A DNA stretch of 64,000 nucleotides from a bacterium (lineage in GTDB: Bacteria > RBG-13-61-14 > DATKZS01): positions 480,001 through 544,000 of the forward strand of contig CAXXFL010000003.1 in assembly GCA_963674965.2 (NCBI GenBank). Direction: 5' to 3'. A program made the translations under genes and the position numbers. Below, in pieces: positions 39,555 through 46,370 of this stretch (the first letter of the stretch is position 1; each line of letters begins with the position of its first letter). Below the pieces are notes generated by a model. That model did not search any database and was not told the origin of the DNA. It was given only the letters and a program-made list of their open reading frames with translations.

Positions 39555-39803
39555 TTTCAAAGCCGCCCGCTTAGCCGCGCCTCGGATGGCCGTCCGGGGC
39601 TCTCCGAAAGCCGGGCAAGGCTGGGCGTGATATATTCTAGTTGCGCTCCCCTTACCGTGTCAATCGGGACAGCCGGGTCTTGACTGTGGAGGGGACGCCG
39701 ACTATATTGCCAAAGTGAAGGCGGGACCGGTCCGAGCCGCCGGATTTTGCATTTTTTCTCGAACCGGCGGGGCCGGCGCCGGCAAGCATCTGAGGAGTCT
39801 GAA

Positions 39804-41216
39804 ATGGACGTACCCAATATCGAGATTAACGACAAGCAATACATGACCACCAATCAGGTGGTGCGCGGGGTGATCGAGCGGCTCGAGGCCGACAATACGG
39901 AGGACGCGGCCCACCTTTACAGCCACTGCCAGGAGGACGTGGGTTTCATCCTCATGGCCCGGGCGCCCAAGGACCGGCCCATCCAGGCCCGCCTGGCCAA
40001 GATGTTCTACAAGGCCAAGGACTTCGAGAAGGCGGCCCTCGTGCTCGAGGCCAACAAGGAATATAAAAGGGCCGCCGAGCTTTACGAGCGCACGGACCAG
40101 TACGAGCACGCGGCCGAGATGTGGATGGGGGTGAACGACGAGGATCGGGCCGCCCGCAACTACGAGAAGAACGGCTCCTGGCAGACGGCGGGCGAGCTTT
40201 ACGTGAAGCTTAAAAACTTCGACCGGGCCGCCTATTGCTTCGAGAAGTCCCTTGACCACATCCAGGCGGCCAGGTACTACTACCAGATCAAGAAGTTCCA
40301 GAAGTCCATGGAAATCCTTCAGAAGGTGCGGGAGGAGGAGGAGGGTTTCCTCGAGGCGGCGGTGATGATCGGAAACATCCTGGCCATGAACGGCTACCTG
40401 GACATGGCCGCGGCCAAGTACCGCAACGTTACCAAGACGGTCGAGATATCCCCCGGCACCCTGAGCGTCTACTACAACCTGGCCCAGCTTCTCGAGCGGA
40501 AGGGGGACGTTTTCGAGGCCACAAGCGTTTACGAGCAAGTTGTCTCCGTCGATATGAACTACCGCGACGCCGGGGCCCGGATCAAGGCGCTTAAAGGCAA
40601 AATCGCGGAGTCGGGGGCCAGGCCCGAGGACGTTCAGGTCGAGCTCGAGGAGATCGTCGAGGACCTCCAGGAGATCGAGGAGGACGAGATCACCCTGGTC
40701 CCGGGCGGCCAGTCCCTGATGGACTCGCCCAAGGCCCAGATCGTCAGCGTCATGGACGGCTTCGAGTTCCTAAAGAACACCTCCCTTTTCGACCGGCTCT
40801 CCCTTACCGAGATGAAAAGGATGTGGAACATATGCGAGACGGTCGATTTCCAGCCGGCCGAGATGATCATCGAGCAGGACCAGCCGGGCCAGGCCCTTTT
40901 CATCATCAAGAAGGGAGGGGTGGTGGTGCAACGGGTCAACCCCGGCTCGGTGACCGACCTGGTTTCCCTGCCCGCCGGCTCCCACGTGGGCGAGATGGCG
41001 CTGGTGGACGACGAGTCGCCCACCTCGGCCCGGGTCGTGGCCGGCGGCGACGGGGCCCAGGCCTTCAAGATCACGAGGGAGAAGTTCGAGGAACTGCTCG
41101 CCAGCGACGACAAGATAGCCATCAAGGTCTACCGGGTCTTCATCCGCACCCTTTGCGACCGGCTGCGCAAGACCACCGAGGACCTCTCATGCGCCCGGGC
41201 CATCCTGGAAAAGTGA
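39804..41216 (+). CDS. TPR-like repeat protein with C-terminal cyclic-nucleotide-binding domain
   Basis: GAGGAG RBS; KAA..YE helical repeats, YYNLA, YRDA; IIEQDQPGQALFIIKKG, VGEMALVD, SARV. Confidence 0.85.
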   Translation: MDVPNIEINDKQYMTTNQVVRGVIERLEADNTEDAAHLYSHCQEDVGFILMARAPKDRPIQARLAKMFYKAKDFEKAALVLEANKEYKRAAELYERTDQYEHAAEMWMGVNDEDRAARNYEKNGSWQTAGELYVKLKNFDRAAYCFEKSLDHIQAARYYYQIKKFQKSMEILQKVREEEEGFLEAAVMIGNILAMNGYLDMAAAKYRNVTKTVEISPGTLSVYYNLAQLLERKGDVFEATSVYEQVVSVDMNYRDAGARIKALKGKIAESGARPEDVQVELEEIVEDLQEIEEDEITLVPGGQSLMDSPKAQIVSVMDGFEFLKNTSLFDRLSLTEMKRMWNICETVDFQPAEMIIEQDQPGQALFIIKKGGVVVQRVNPGSVTDLVSLPAGSHVGEMALVDDESPTSARVVAGGDGAQAFKITREKFEELLASDDKIAIKVYRVFIRTLCDRLRKTTEDLSCARAILEK

Positions 41217-41253
41217 CGGGCGCCGAGGCCGAACCTGGGCTATACTCGGTCCC

Positions 41254-41457
41254 ATGAACATGAAATGGACGGGATGGAGATGGATAGCCGGCGCGGCCGG
41301 CTTCGGACTGGGCTGGGCCTACGGGACCTTTATCGGCTGCCATGGCGGGTGAGGACTCCTCTCCAGCCCGCCGTTGGCGGGCGCGATCTTCGCCCTCATG
41401 AGCTACAGCCTGGCCGAGCTTCTAAGGGGCGATCCCCAGGCCCCGGGAAACGAGTAA
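41254..41457 (+). CDS. Small membrane protein with in-frame UGA, candidate selenoprotein (DUF6132-like GCxxxC motif with Sec)
   Basis: MNMKWTGWRWIAGAAGFGLGWAYGTFIGCHGG-U(TGA 41350)-GLLSSPPLAGAIFALMSYSLAELLRGDPQAPGNE-TAA; two hydrophobic helices flank the motif; SECIS-like hairpin downstream. Confidence 0.7.
41366..41382 (+). promoter_or_regulatory. Putative bacterial SECIS hairpin
   Basis: GCCCGCC-GTT-GGCGGGC, a perfect 7-bp stem starting 13 nt after the UGA, loop begins GU. Confidence 0.65.
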
Positions 41458-41656
41458 CGCATAGAAAAAGCCATTGGTTAGGCCGGAGATCACATGTTAA
41501 CGGCGATGGGTTACCCGTTAAGGATATATATATATTGAACGGGTTAACGAGAGCCTTGACGCCTCTATCGGGCGCGAATTATACCTTGGAGAAACACGGC
41601 CTGACGTTATTTGTGTATGCACGCTGATCCCATGCCACATTTGAGAAGGAGGATTG

Positions 41657-41893
41657 ATGAGAAATAATTAATTCGAAACGTCTCCGATTCAATTGATAGT
41701 AGTCGGTTCTCTGTTAATTCTTTTTGCAATATTATTAATTCTAATAAAAGGATATTCATTGTCCACTCTAATCCATATAGGGCATATAATCCTAGGGGTA
41801 TATCTGATAATAATCTCTATATTAATGTATGGAAAGAAATATCGAGAAGCGAGTGACCAGAAGATTTTTCTAAACCGGAGGATGACAGTTTAA
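41657..41893 (+). pseudogene. AT-rich small two-TM membrane protein, interrupted by TAA at codon 5
   Basis: AGGAGG RBS, then ATG AGA AAT AAT TAA continuing in frame FETSPIQLIVVGSLLILF...; low GC. Confidence 0.45.
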
Positions 41894-41949
41894 AAGGGTA
41901 ACCCATGGCTCGCCTATGTGGGCGACTCTGCGATCATTCTTGGCTGGCT

Positions 41950-41993
41950 GGGTCGCCCATGCATCATGCATGGGCGGCGTAAGCCGCGGGCTG
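41950..41993 (-). repeat. REP-like repeat family copy (single arm)
   Basis: Reverse complement CAGCCCGCGGCTTACGCCGCCCATGCATGATGCATGGGCGACCC. Confidence 0.75.
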
Positions 41994-42106
41994 ATTTCCT
42001 CCCGCTATCGGACCCCTCCAATCGCCGGCCGGGACCAGCCGGAAAACGCCTCCAAGCGCCCGTAGCCCCGCAGACTGAAGCCCGTTCGCTCCGCTCACCC
42101 GCGGAA

Positions 42107-42149
42107 ACGAAAAGGGCCGGGACCGCTTGGAAAGGCGCGGTCCCGGCCC
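42107..42149 (-). terminator. Rho-independent terminator of the hydratase gene
   Basis: 13-bp stem GGGCCGGGACCGC/GCGGTCCCGGCCC followed by TTTTCG on the minus strand. Confidence 0.7.
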
Positions 42150-42167
42150 GATCGATCGGCCGTTGTA

Positions 42168-43001
42168 TCAGACCTCGAACTTGGCGGCCGCGTTCATGAT
42201 CACGGCCTTGCCGTCCTGGGTGTCGGCGGCGATGATGCACTTGCCGTCGCCGTCGTTCCAAATCTTGGTAACGACCTTGTCGCCGGGCATGACCGGACTG
42301 CGGAAACGGACCTCGTACTCCATGAGCTTGGACGGGTCGCCGCCGCAGCACTTGTTGATGACGGCCCGGCCCACGAAGCCGAAGGTGCAAAGGCCGTGGA
42401 GGATGGGCTTTTCGAACCCGGCCATCTTGGCGAAGTTGGGGTCGACGTGGAGGGGGTTGATGTCGCCCGACAGCCTGTAGATCAGGTTCTGGATGGGCAT
42501 GGTCTGGTCCTCGACGGTTATGTCGGGGGCACGGTCCGGGGCCTCGTTGCCCGCCGAGGGGCCCTTGTCCCCGCCGAAGCCGCCCGCGCCGCGCACGAAC
42601 ACGCCGAAGTAGTTGTCGAAGAGCGGCTCGCCGCTTTCCTTGATCTTGGTGGTGGTCTTGATGTAATAAAGGGCGCCCTTGCCCTTGTCGAACAGGTCGG
42701 TAATCTGGCCCTCAGTCACCGTCTCGGCCCTGACCGGAAGGGGACGCTTGTGGATGACTATCTTCTGCTCGCCGTGAAGTATCATCATCGGGTTGGCCCC
42801 GGTAAGGGGAATACTGCCGGCCAGGGCGGGGAAAGGCGGCACCACCGCGAAGGTCGGTATGACCTTGAGTTGTCCCTCGTACACGAAAGGCAGCTCGTAG
42901 GCCCCGATGCCAATGTTGTAGAGCACGATGTCCTTCCAGGTCCAGTTAAAATCCACCGGCGGCAGAGACTTGCCGGCGCAATCCGTTTTAATACCTCCCA
43001 T
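42168..43001 (-). CDS. Double hot-dog (R)-specific enoyl-CoA hydratase, MaoC/hydratase-2 family
   Basis: LHGEQ, YRLSGDINPLHVDP, PILHGLCTFG, RFRSPVMPGD; AGGAGG RBS. Confidence 0.93.
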   Translation of the reverse strand: MGGIKTDCAGKSLPPVDFNWTWKDIVLYNIGIGAYELPFVYEGQLKVIPTFAVVPPFPALAGSIPLTGANPMMILHGEQKIVIHKRPLPVRAETVTEGQITDLFDKGKGALYYIKTTTKIKESGEPLFDNYFGVFVRGAGGFGGDKGPSAGNEAPDRAPDITVEDQTMPIQNLIYRLSGDINPLHVDPNFAKMAGFEKPILHGLCTFGFVGRAVINKCCGGDPSKLMEYEVRFRSPVMPGDKVVTKIWNDGDGKCIIAADTQDGKAVIMNAAAKFEV

Positions 43002-43673: not shown

Positions 43674-46370
43674 TTACGCCTTGGCGATCTTAACCGCGCA
43701 GGCCTTGTACTCGGCCGTCTTCGAGACCGGGTCGAAGGCGGGGTTGGTCAGCCAGTTGGCGTTGCCCTCCCGGAAGTGGAAGTCCATCCATACCATGCCC
43801 TCCGGCATTTCCTTGCCGATCCTCGCCTTGACCTTTACCTCGCCGCGGCGGGAGGCCACCTTTATACGGTCGCCGTCCTTGATGCCGTAGCGCTCGGCGT
43901 CGGCCCCTGAAATGTCGGCCACGCTCTCGCCCAGCAGCACGTTCATGCCGTCGCAGCGTCCCGTCTGGGTCCGGGTATGGTAATGGTACAATCTCCGCCC
44001 CGTGCTGAGAACGAGGGGGTATTCATCGTCCGGGACCTCGGCCGGCGGCGTCCAGTCGATGGCGTGGAACTGGCCCAGGCCACAGGAGAACTGTCCGTCC
44101 TTGTGCAGGAAGCAGGTGCCGGGATGGTCCTCGTCCGGGCAGGGCCACTGGAGACCGTCGTTCTCGATGCGGGCGTACTTGATGCCCTTGTAGGCGGGCG
44201 CCAGCTCGGAGACCTCGTTGTCCCAGATTTCACGGGCGCTTTTGGATTCCCACTCGTGCCCGAGCCGCTTGGCGATCTCGCGGAAAATCCACCAGTTGGG
44301 CTTGGCCTGGCCGGGGGGGACCGAGGCGGTCCTTACCCGGTTGACCCGGCGCTCGCTGTTGGTGAAAGTCCCGTCGTTCTCGCTCCAGGCCGCCGCCGGC
44401 AGGACCACGTCGGCGAAGCGGGTGGTCTCGGTGGGAAAGATGTCCTGGCAGACCAGGAACTCGGCCGACTCGAGGCAGTGCTCGACGTGGCGGATGTCCG
44501 GCTCCGAGTTGGCCGGGTTCTCGCCGAAGATGTAGAAGGCCTTGACGCTCCCGTCGATCAGGCCGTCGAACATGTCGGGCATCATGATGCCGTTCTTGTC
44601 GGACATGCCCTCGACGCCCCAGGCCTTCTCGAACTTCTCGCGGGCCGCGGCGTCGATCACCTTCTGGTAGCCGTGGTACACGTTGGGCAGGGCCCCCATG
44701 TCGCAGGCTCCCTGCACGTTGTTCTGTCCCCGCAGGGGGTTGACGCCTCCGCTCTCGACGCCCATGTTGCCAAGGAGCATCTGGAGGTTGGCCGTGCTCA
44801 TGACGTTGTTCACGCCGCAGGTGTGCTCGGTGATGCCCAGGGTATAGCAAAGCATCACTGGCTTCACGCTGGCCAGCTTCCTGGCCACCTCGCGTATCTT
44901 ATCGGGGGCTATGCCGCTTATGTCGGCCACGCGCTCGGGCGGATACTCGGCCACCTTTTTCTTCAAGTCCTCGAAGCCCACGGTGCAGGAATTGACGAAT
45001 TCCTTGTCGTAGAGGTCCTCCTCGATGAGGACGTTCATGATGCCGTTGAGGAAGGCAACGTCGCATCCCACTTTAATTTGAAGATGCATGCAGGCGTGTT
45101 CCGTGAGCTTGTGCGCGCGCGGATCGGCCACTATAAGCTGGGCGCCGTTCTTGACGGCGTTCTTGACGAAGGTCGCGGCCACTGGATGGGCCTCACACAT
45201 ATTGGAGCCGATGACGAAGAACATCTTGGCCTTGGGGAACTCGCGGAAAGAGTTGGTCATCGCGCCGGAACCGAAGCTATTCACCAGACCGGTGACGGTG
45301 GGAGCGTGTCATGTTCGTGCGCAGTGGTCAATGTTGTTGGTCTTGAATACCCCCCTGAACAGCTTCTGCATGTTATAGGAGTCCTCGTTGATGCTGCGGG
45401 CGCAGCTCACGCCGGCCACCGAGTCGGGGCCGTGCTTCTCGATGATCTCCTTAAACCTCGAGGCCACCAGGTCCAGGGCCTCGTCCCAGGAGGCCTCCCG
45501 GAACTCGCCGTTCTCCTTGATAAGGGGAGTGGTCAAGCGCTCGCCCGAGTAAATGAAGTCGAAGCCGAAGCGGCCCTTTACGCAGAGCCGGCCCTGGTTG
45601 GGCTCGGCGTTCTCCACCGCCGTGACCTTCACGACCTTGCCGCGGTTGACGTGCAGCCAAAGCTGGCAGCCCACGCCGCAATAAGGGCAGGTGGTCCTTA
45701 TTTTCTGGAGGTCGAAGACGCGTCCCTTGCCCTTGGACTTCTTCTCGGTCAGGGCGCCCGTGGGACAGGCCTGGACGCACTGGCCGCAGAACACGCAGTC
45801 GGACTCGGGATGGAGCATGGGCCGGTCGTTCATGGTCACGATCTTGGCCTCGAAGCCCCGGTTGCCGAAGCTGATGGCCCCGTTGACCTGGACCTCGTTG
45901 CAGGCCTGAACGCAACGGCCGCAGAGCACGCACTTCCTGGGGTCGCGGATGATGAAGGGGTTGTCCTCGTCGATGGGAAGCGGCTCGGCGTCGTGTTTGA
46001 TCCTGACCGTTTCCACGCCGTACTCGTAGGCCAGCTTCTGGAGGTCGCAGTCGCCGTTGGCCTCGCACAGCATGCAGTCGTGCTCGCCGAAGGCGATCAG
46101 AAGCTCGAGGTTCATGCGCCGGACCTTGTGCACCTTCTCCGTGTCCGTCTCGACCGACATGCCGTCCGTGGCCGGGGTGGTGCAAGCGGGAAGGAGGTTC
46201 CTGGCCCCCTCGACCTCGACCATGCACATGCGGCAAGACCCCGTCGGGCTCACCCCCCGCATGTAACAAAGCGTGGGTATGCGGACCCCGTTTCGAGAGG
46301 CGACCTCCAAAATGGTGTCGCCCTCCTGGAAATCGTACTCCACTCCGTTCAATTTGATTTTTTTACTCAT
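43674..46370 (-). CDS. fdhF: Selenocysteine-containing Mo/W formate dehydrogenase alpha subunit with NuoG-like Fe-S N-terminus (898 aa)
   Basis: The two track ORFs are one frame joined at TGA 45311-45309: [53 protein letters not shown]; N-terminal 2Fe-2S and 4Fe-4S motifs; no Tat signal. Confidence 0.96.
45281..45295 (-). promoter_or_regulatory. SECIS element of formate dehydrogenase
   Basis: UCACCG-GUC-UGGUGA hairpin starting 13 nt after the UGA, resembling the E. coli fdhF GGUCUG apical region. Confidence 0.85.

Follow-up and report, generated by a model that had tools for sequence, protein, structure and literature searches.

Comparative evidence for an unannotated bacterial selenoprotein gene of the C-x3-U type related to the DUF6132 family

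Does an in-frame UGA close to the start of a very short bacterial frame end a one-helix peptide, or does it specify selenocysteine (Sec, U) in a small membrane protein? The question is raised by a stretch of 64,000 nucleotides (nt) of a bacterial genome (G000:C3:480001-544000; hereafter the window, whose coordinates are used throughout), in which an ATG at 41254 on the plus strand opens a frame that meets a TGA at 41350 and, if this TGA is read as U, continues to a TAA stop at 41455-41457. A preliminary description of this DNA had noted this 67-aa frame, which lies outside its list of open reading frames (ORFs), and its coordinates and translation were reproduced here. Our comparisons give strong support to the view that the locus is an unannotated selenoprotein gene, belonging to a C-x3-U clade related to DUF6132. 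Taken jointly, the claims that the frame is a genuine gene encoding a membrane selenoprotein of 67 residues, that a hairpin directs its Sec decoding, that it is a branch of DUF6132 and that its Cys/Sec pair is a redox centre have, in our estimate from sequence comparison, a probability of roughly 85%. The predicted product, with TGA as U, is MNMKWTGWRWIAGAAGFGLGWAYGTFIGCHGGUGLLSSPPLAGAIFALMSYSLAELLRGDPQAPGNE, and the features on which the argument turns are these:

41254..41457, plus strand: coding sequence of the predicted 67-aa selenoprotein, based on its translation and its homologues; the ATG at 41254 agrees with the MN(K)W start of the homologue P0002
41338..41340, plus strand: TGC codon of Cys29, first residue of the C-x3-U pair; invariant in 7 of 7 Sec-clade rows and conserved in at least 90% of the 97 rows of alignment A5
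41350..41352, plus strand: in-frame UGA, predicted Sec (U33); every homologous locus has its TGA at this column, where the Cys homologues have Cys
41366..41382, plus strand: SECIS-type (selenocysteine insertion sequence) hairpin GCCCGCC-GUU-GGCGGGC; stem 41366-41372 with 41376-41382, loop GUU at 41373-41375

The ORF list made under translation table 11 does not hold the Sec frame; what overlaps it there is an off-frame ORF of 120 aa (41265-41627, plus strand) and a minus-strand ORF of 67 aa. The 120-aa ORF was rejected as a true gene, being Arg-rich and off-frame, with the conservation in relatives following the Sec frame. It is this conservation in relatives, and not the single sequence, that puts the feature beyond chance.

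A translated search of 61 genomes located the gene at seven places in six genomes, each with exactly one in-frame TGA. The profile made from those seven (A1), run over the whole phylum (13 genomes), gave nine places in seven genomes, eight of them real; the remaining match (G011:C11, E 0.008) is without the motif and was dropped as spurious. Each of the eight real places has a single in-frame TGA, the column being the same throughout, and similarity extends to either side of it. A scan of genome contigs with a further profile, A2, returned only the four known relatives, and three of three loci from a metagenome scan carry the TGA, one of these (L041) being nearly identical to the G003 locus and not independent of it. 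The clade follows the pattern GFGLGW-x7-(I/L)GC-x3-U-x4-NPW(V/F)(A/T)G and then a second hydrophobic stretch, with C-x4-U spacing in G011, a member of another class of the phylum. When G004 and G002, which are congeneric species, are compared, identity is 75% over the 183-nt gene and 23-28% over the 150-nt flanks (ungapped); the differences fall 11, 7 and 27 times at codon positions 1, 2 and 3, and past the UGA the changed codons are 8 synonymous and 7 non-synonymous.

Were the UGA an ordinary stop, the gene would yield a 32-residue peptide with one helix, and the conserved 3' part would be either a small ORF in its own right or an RNA element, for instance a terminator or an attenuator. Databases do hold the two halves separately, as N-terminal pieces of 30-33 aa and C-terminal pieces of 32-46 aa, and TGA also serves as an ordinary stop in this genome, the upstream gene ending in one (41214-41216). 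However, the two halves stand in one frame, with no indel, in 10 of 10 distinct loci; most of the downstream halves have no start codon at a conserved place; and full-length Cys homologues align ungapped across the site.

These Cys homologues came from a profile search of 1.84 billion representative proteins, which gave 323 matches at E<=0.001. Among the 150 matches listed, which were sorted by regular expression and then by eye, 141 have Cys at both positions (105 as Cx4C, 36 as Cx3C), and six are short pieces (30-35 aa) with their end just ahead of the UGA column or their start just behind it; since their boundaries sit at this column, they are the product to be expected when a gene caller meets the Sec form. 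In the same list P0121 lacks the first Cys and P0154 has W in place of the second, and the 932-aa repeat protein P0008 was taken out as a spurious match. The nearest Cys forms, P0009 and P0010, have C-x3-C spacing and NPWVTG, and a BLASTP alignment of the window protein (P0001) with P0009 runs ungapped across the site, with U on Cys. When the Sec clade was compared with 26 Cys homologues in hhalign, the two aligned over 61 columns (probability 99.6%, E 1.6e-24), and a one-residue gap placed U on the second Cys. Both alignments bear out the earlier suggestion that Sec replaces the second Cys of the DUF6132 motif, and neither sets opposite the UGA a non-Cys residue such as Trp, which the preliminary description had named as refuting it. 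In A5, whose 97 rows were picked by hand from the rows available and do not include P0154, the Sec/Cys column is the sole invariant one.

A further alternative is that the UGA is read through without Sec, as Trp or Cys by near-cognate decoding or through local recoding. W does stand at this column in P0154 and in P0158, a protein 71% identical to a Sec form that was found in a second database search, and both stand as counter-examples; were their codons TGG, Trp would be tolerated here. A gene caller working under table 4 prints W for TGA, and the two may be such renderings; P0158 comes from a contig of only 913 bases, its DNA is absent from the metagenome loci returned, and nearly identical genomic loci have TGA. 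Moreover, the column holds Cys and not Trp in those 141 of the 150 listed relatives, and reading through without Sec gives no role to the conserved hairpin or to the co-occurrence with SelA described below. We consider this the least probable of the explanations weighed here, marginally behind an ordinary stop.

The hairpin had been described as a perfect 7-bp stem with a GUU loop, 13 nt past the UGA, and it was recovered as such at 41366-41382, with a spacing of 20 nt from UGA to loop. The 56-nt stretch around it folds at -29.3 kcal/mol (z = -2.99), a value equalled in 1 of 200 shuffles, and the hairpin by itself at -15.1 kcal/mol. The bacterial SECIS model given in a review (PMC13188914) has a loop of 3-9 nt, a stem of 4-16 bp, a G within the first two loop positions, a distance of 16-37 nt from the UGA and a minimum free energy of -7.5 kcal/mol or below; the window hairpin lies within the four constraints of this model, with its GUU loop, 7 bp, 20 nt and -15.1 kcal/mol. 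In six of the eight genomic copies the hairpin alone attains -7.5 kcal/mol, the others being G003b (-6.2) and G001 (-4.3).

Over 10 distinct copies (alignment A8), 65 of 70 cells are paired and three of the seven pairs are altered on both sides. None of 500 shuffles matched the covariation score or the percentage paired of A8, a statistic in which related sequences may outscore shuffles without any structure, and sliding the partner by 1-3 columns lowered the pairing to 19-56%. More telling is a change in the window copy itself: it has CCCGCC/GGCGGG where the other copies have CCCGUG/C(A/G)CGGG, so that every pair is kept while the encoded motif, elsewhere always NPWV, becomes SPPL. At this register the folding energies run from -4.3 to -15.1 kcal/mol over nine Sec genes and from 0 to -6.6 over 13 Cys genes; for those four of the latter whose G+C is at least 0.6 they are -3.2 to -6.6. 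After NPW the Sec forms have V/F-A/T-G, residues whose codons make up the 3' arm of the hairpin, and the Cys forms mostly have I-S-T; the clade would be an example of a protein motif shaped by an RNA element, the difference falling just where the 3' arm is encoded. The seven codons that form the hairpin are identical between G004 and G002. As for a terminator or attenuator, no T run follows the hairpin, and a scan of 41000-42300 gave no terminator-like site, nor any promoter-like site upstream of the small gene. An Rfam scan of 40800-42400 returned four matches, all far below the gathering score, and thus no known RNA family. The preliminary description had named a lack of homologues spanning the UGA, or of conservation of the UGA and hairpin, as grounds for abandoning the claim; what we found are homologues that span the UGA and a hairpin kept with compensatory changes.

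It had also counted the absence of selA, selB or selC against the claim, and these three are in the genome, as is selD: selA (479 bits), a SelB winged-helix domain (77.9 bits) in a 651-aa frame adjoining selA, a tRNA-SeC with anticodon tca directly after the selB frame, and selD (360.8 bits). The selD gene, at L038 (G000:C1:1052858-1053775), has an in-frame TGA of its own, from which it would be a Sec or Sec-site form itself. Full-length SelA (471-494 bits) occurs in seven of the 13 phylum genomes, exactly the seven that have the TGA gene. In G005 there is a SelA piece only (23.7 bits, 49 of 367 positions), five genomes have no SelA, and in these six profile A1 found no homologue of the small protein in either Sec or Cys form. 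Because the genomes are kin, the co-occurrence counts as one or a few events and not as thirteen. The confinement of the gene to phylum genomes with full-length SelA further argues against an ordinary stop, and we regard that explanation as very unlikely.

In the mechanism that we propose, SelB with Sec-tRNA(Sec) would bind the hairpin at 41366-41382 inside the coding sequence, and the UGA at 41350 would be decoded as Sec. With the gene, the conserved UGA, its match to Cys, the hairpin and the machinery all observed, we infer that Sec is inserted here; the UGA almost certainly specifies selenocysteine at a position where nearly all relatives examined have cysteine. Several observations weigh against this picture. 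The relatives are kin and not independent of each other, and the phylum comprises 13 genomes only. One of the ten hairpins, that of G001, contains a mismatch inside the stem and is more stable in a shifted fold. The hairpin is partly palindromic through its codon content (CCG UGG). The folding control with Cys genes is partial, since G+C differs between the two sets and is mostly lower in the Cys genes; and there are the two proteins with W mentioned above.

To which family, then, does the protein belong? The preliminary description saw in it a resemblance to DUF6132 (PF19628), and this was upheld in one kind of search and not in another. PF19628 is matched by 22 of the 26 Cys homologues used as the hhalign target, with several Cys homologues scoring up to 40.3 bits, so the profile-profile match of 99.6% speaks for the resemblance. 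The points on the other side are that the window protein has no hit in Pfam even at E<=10, PF19628 included, and that the Sec clade stays below the PF19628 cut-off of 23.2 bits, with a maximum of 17.3 (P0006) and, for example, 10.1 for P0003. Membership in DUF6132 therefore rests on the profile-profile comparison. Other Sec forms score higher, the Cx4U protein of G011 at 21.6 bits and that of G267, from another phylum, at 26.9 bits, above the cut-off. Over 301 genomes PF19628 occurs in 14, above the cut-off in 12, and two of its 15 places have a TGA (those of G011 and G267). These comparisons support placing the window protein within DUF6132, a family of Cys-containing proteins, as a divergent branch that bears Sec.

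An AlphaFold2 model made with the 97-row alignment has helices at 4-26 and 39-57, joined by a 12-residue loop that carries C29 and U33; its confidence is low (mean pLDDT 63.2), which is again a point against. This model and the alignment together give two hydrophobic helices with a paired-Cys motif in the connecting turn, as in DUF6132. Lysines and arginines are concentrated at the ends of the Cys forms (means of K+R over 89 Cys forms: 2.6 in the N-tail, 3.0 in the C-tail and 0.19 in the loop). By the positive-inside rule, ends rich in K and R lie inside, which in the Cys forms would bring both ends inside and leave the Cys pair outside. From this bias we infer an outward-facing loop for the whole family. 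Among the seven Sec forms, on the less favourable side, the charge bias is weak. A complex prediction with two copies of a Cys homologue (A6, 89 natural Cys forms) scored 0.00, that is, it gave 'no answer'.

What might such a protein do? The preliminary description had offered a membrane redox or metal-binding module as possibilities, and both are treated as conjectures below. Sec normally occupies the reactive residue of redox proteins, which suggests that the second Cys of DUF6132 is the functional centre of the family. The product would be a helical hairpin of two membrane helices whose short loop carries Cys29 and Sec33 (C-H-G-G-U); this pair would cycle between a selenol/thiol and a selenylsulfide form and would serve as the reactive centre in a small thiol-redox module of the membrane that has thioredoxin-fold partners. 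The evidence for such partners comes from gene context in the wider family. We examined the regions flanking 13 DUF6132 loci from outside the phylum, leaving out L026, which lies at a contig end; two of the 13 are from one genus. In six of them a thioredoxin-fold gene is adjacent on the same strand or fused: a canonical thioredoxin gene stands directly upstream on the same strand in L025, L028 and L029, and a thioredoxin-like gene directly downstream in L034 and L036 (the two of one genus). A pyridine-nucleotide-disulfide oxidoreductase gene lies within the 1.5-kb flanks of four of the 13, and an adjacent, overlapping rhodanese gene in one. Redox-type neighbours combined are found at nine of the 13, a count not controlled for the background rate in random 3-kb windows.

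The sixth case is the fusion. In G267, the genome from another phylum, a minus-strand gene (L032:1129-1671) joins a C-x4-U type DUF6132 domain to a thioredoxin-like domain that lacks the cysteines of CxxC, and a Redoxin/AhpC-TSA gene follows it.

From such context and from the motif, the C-x3-U site is probably a selenylsulfide-forming centre tied to thioredoxin-type redox chemistry. It should be said that no thioredoxin-fold gene adjoins the small gene in the Sec-clade loci, so that the redox link is borrowed from distant relatives, and that a loop at the outer face sits poorly with direct reduction by the cytoplasmic-looking thioredoxins found beside some of these. Both are to be set on the unfavourable side of the balance.

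It is also possible, though we think it clearly the less probable course, that the protein is a selenoprotein whose Cys and Sec are not a redox centre and instead form a ligand site, binding or passing on a soft metal, a metalloid or a selenium or sulfur species. Mercury, copper, arsenic, or a persulfide or selenide to be carried are candidates, in the manner of the small Cys-bearing mercury transporters; MerT and MerF, which transport Hg(II) and are likewise small, membrane-bound and equipped with paired Cys, provide the precedent. Some neighbours of DUF6132 genes would fit such a role, among them rhodanese and DUF302 (L027), an ArsR-type regulator (L028) and S-adenosylmethionine-dependent methyltransferases (L023 and L006, the latter also with a TehB-type match), and the glycine-rich first helix would permit oligomers. 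On the other hand, none of the seven Sec-clade proteins matches a metal transporter family in Pfam or NCBIfam, the MerT/MerF-type family PF02411 included, no mer, ars or cop genes stand beside the small gene in the window or in the clade loci, and the most frequent neighbours across the wider family are of the thioredoxin fold (adjacent or fused at the six of 13 given above). We therefore prefer the redox centre to the ligand site.

With these data in mind, one may speculate that the DUF6132 proteins are minimal two-helix transmembrane relays for thiols or selenols, functional analogues of CcdA/DsbD, with the Sec forms as a version of high reactivity. According to this speculation, which we regard as improbable but worth stating, units of about 60 residues each, presumably as oligomers, would pass reducing equivalents, or else a chalcogen or soft metal bound to them, between thioredoxin-type partners in the cytoplasm and the outer face. 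For several DUF6132 members there is translational coupling, or a fusion, to thioredoxin-fold proteins of cytoplasmic look, and a relay would explain the tension between these partners and a loop that appears to be outside.

Nearer to the gene itself, the surroundings in the window are as follows, starting from the gene upstream:

39747..41216, plus strand: gene for a 489-aa protein with TPR and cyclic-nucleotide-binding domains; 37 nt (41217-41253) separate it from the ATG of the small gene

The G002 homologue of this upstream gene has the Pfam domains TPR and cNMP_binding, and a TPR/cNMP-binding gene stands upstream of the small gene in G000, G002 and G003. From this context it is a possible operon partner. 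Among three sequencing runs compared with the window, the single RNA run covers parts of the upstream gene only (95-99% likeness), with no reads over the small ORF, a result without bearing on expression; the run that covers it in full is probably the source of the assembly. On the downstream side, a CysG-type sirohaem synthase gene is convergent in G001, G002, L041, L042 and L043. The neighbours in the Sec clade do not explain the function.

Some further observations concern the sequence around the gene and its relatives. In G003 there are two tandem paralogous copies (L007:653-814 and L007:290-529, minus strand), each with its own TGA and hairpin, which directly follow the TPR/cNMP-binding gene. 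For the locus L002/L041, the matching database entry P0166 has only a 46-aa C-terminal piece past the UGA annotated, as a 'hypothetical protein'. In the window, the region just 3' of the selenoprotein gene (41495-41552) has an (AT)n run with short nested repeats, around GTTAACGG / CCCGTTAA / AACGGGTTAAC, on either side. Further on, an AT-rich island at 41600-41900 has a G+C of 0.32-0.36 against 0.62-0.68 on both sides and contains a very hydrophobic 66-aa ORF (41693-41893, plus strand). Since relatives have the convergent CysG-type gene at this place, the island may be an insertion.

Has the family been described as a selenoprotein before? The preliminary description knew of no such report, and we found none in those open-licence papers that could be searched, where the sole full-text match to 'DUF6132' is unrelated. 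The available portion of the prokaryotic selenoprotein review (PMC13188914) does not contain the strings PF19628, CxxxU, CxxxxU or UxxxC, the new selenoprotein families of deep-Sep are others in what its text presents (PMC12013277), and the main text and one supplement of BSepDB (PMC13326102) do not contain DUF6132, PF19628 or 'membrane protein'. None of the catalogue families identified by Pfam or NCBIfam accession in the available text of PMC13188914 matched the seven Sec-clade proteins, and NCBIfam release 20, with its selenoprotein models, gave no relevant hit for them. The family is thus absent from the catalogue texts checked; older catalogues may hold it as an unnamed 'hypothetical'. 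If the assignment is true, the bacterial selenoproteins gain a family whose function is not known, one whose Sec genes are split by gene callers into two fragments and so missed, and the Sec/Cys pair gives a widespread, uncharacterised family of membrane mini-proteins a testable chemistry.

How does the predicted protein compare with known systems? A known membrane protein with a Cys/Sec pair of the form C/S-x2-U is a precedent for Sec in a ligand or relay site embedded in the membrane; the small protein differs from it in having C-x3-U, with no sequence relationship found between the two and no mer genes nearby. With the Cys proteins of DUF6132, which have 55-95 aa, the Sec clade shares two hydrophobic helices, the first of them glycine-rich. 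In these proteins the turn reads G-C-x(3-4)-C and then (I/L)TSNPW, and the Sec clade has the same motif with Sec as the second Cys. The C-x3-U of the window protein is one residue shorter than the common C-x4-C of DUF6132, SPPL replaces NPWV in the window copy, and the thioredoxin neighbours that are common in the family are not seen in the Sec clade.

The hairpin, in turn, is best compared with genes that have a SECIS inside the ORF, of which Escherichia coli fdhF is the prototype. The window has one as well, a Sec formate dehydrogenase alpha subunit on the minus strand (43674-46370) that table 11 splits into two ORFs (45309-46370 and 43674-45284). Its TGA at 45311-45309 is followed, after 13 nt, by the hairpin UCACC-GGUCU-GGUGA at 45295-45281, and the likeness drawn in the preliminary description between the two elements, in their 13-nt offset and in a G-led loop, holds, with the dehydrogenase on the opposite strand. 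The two share the offset and the G-led apical loop, whereas the dehydrogenase has a loop of 5 nt (GGUCU) on a 5-bp stem and the small gene a loop of 3 nt on a perfect 7-bp stem; and the host of the latter is a 67-aa membrane protein, unlike a formate dehydrogenase-type enzyme of known function. In kind, the gene belongs to an already known class, that of bacterial selenoproteins with Cys homologues and a SECIS within the ORF.

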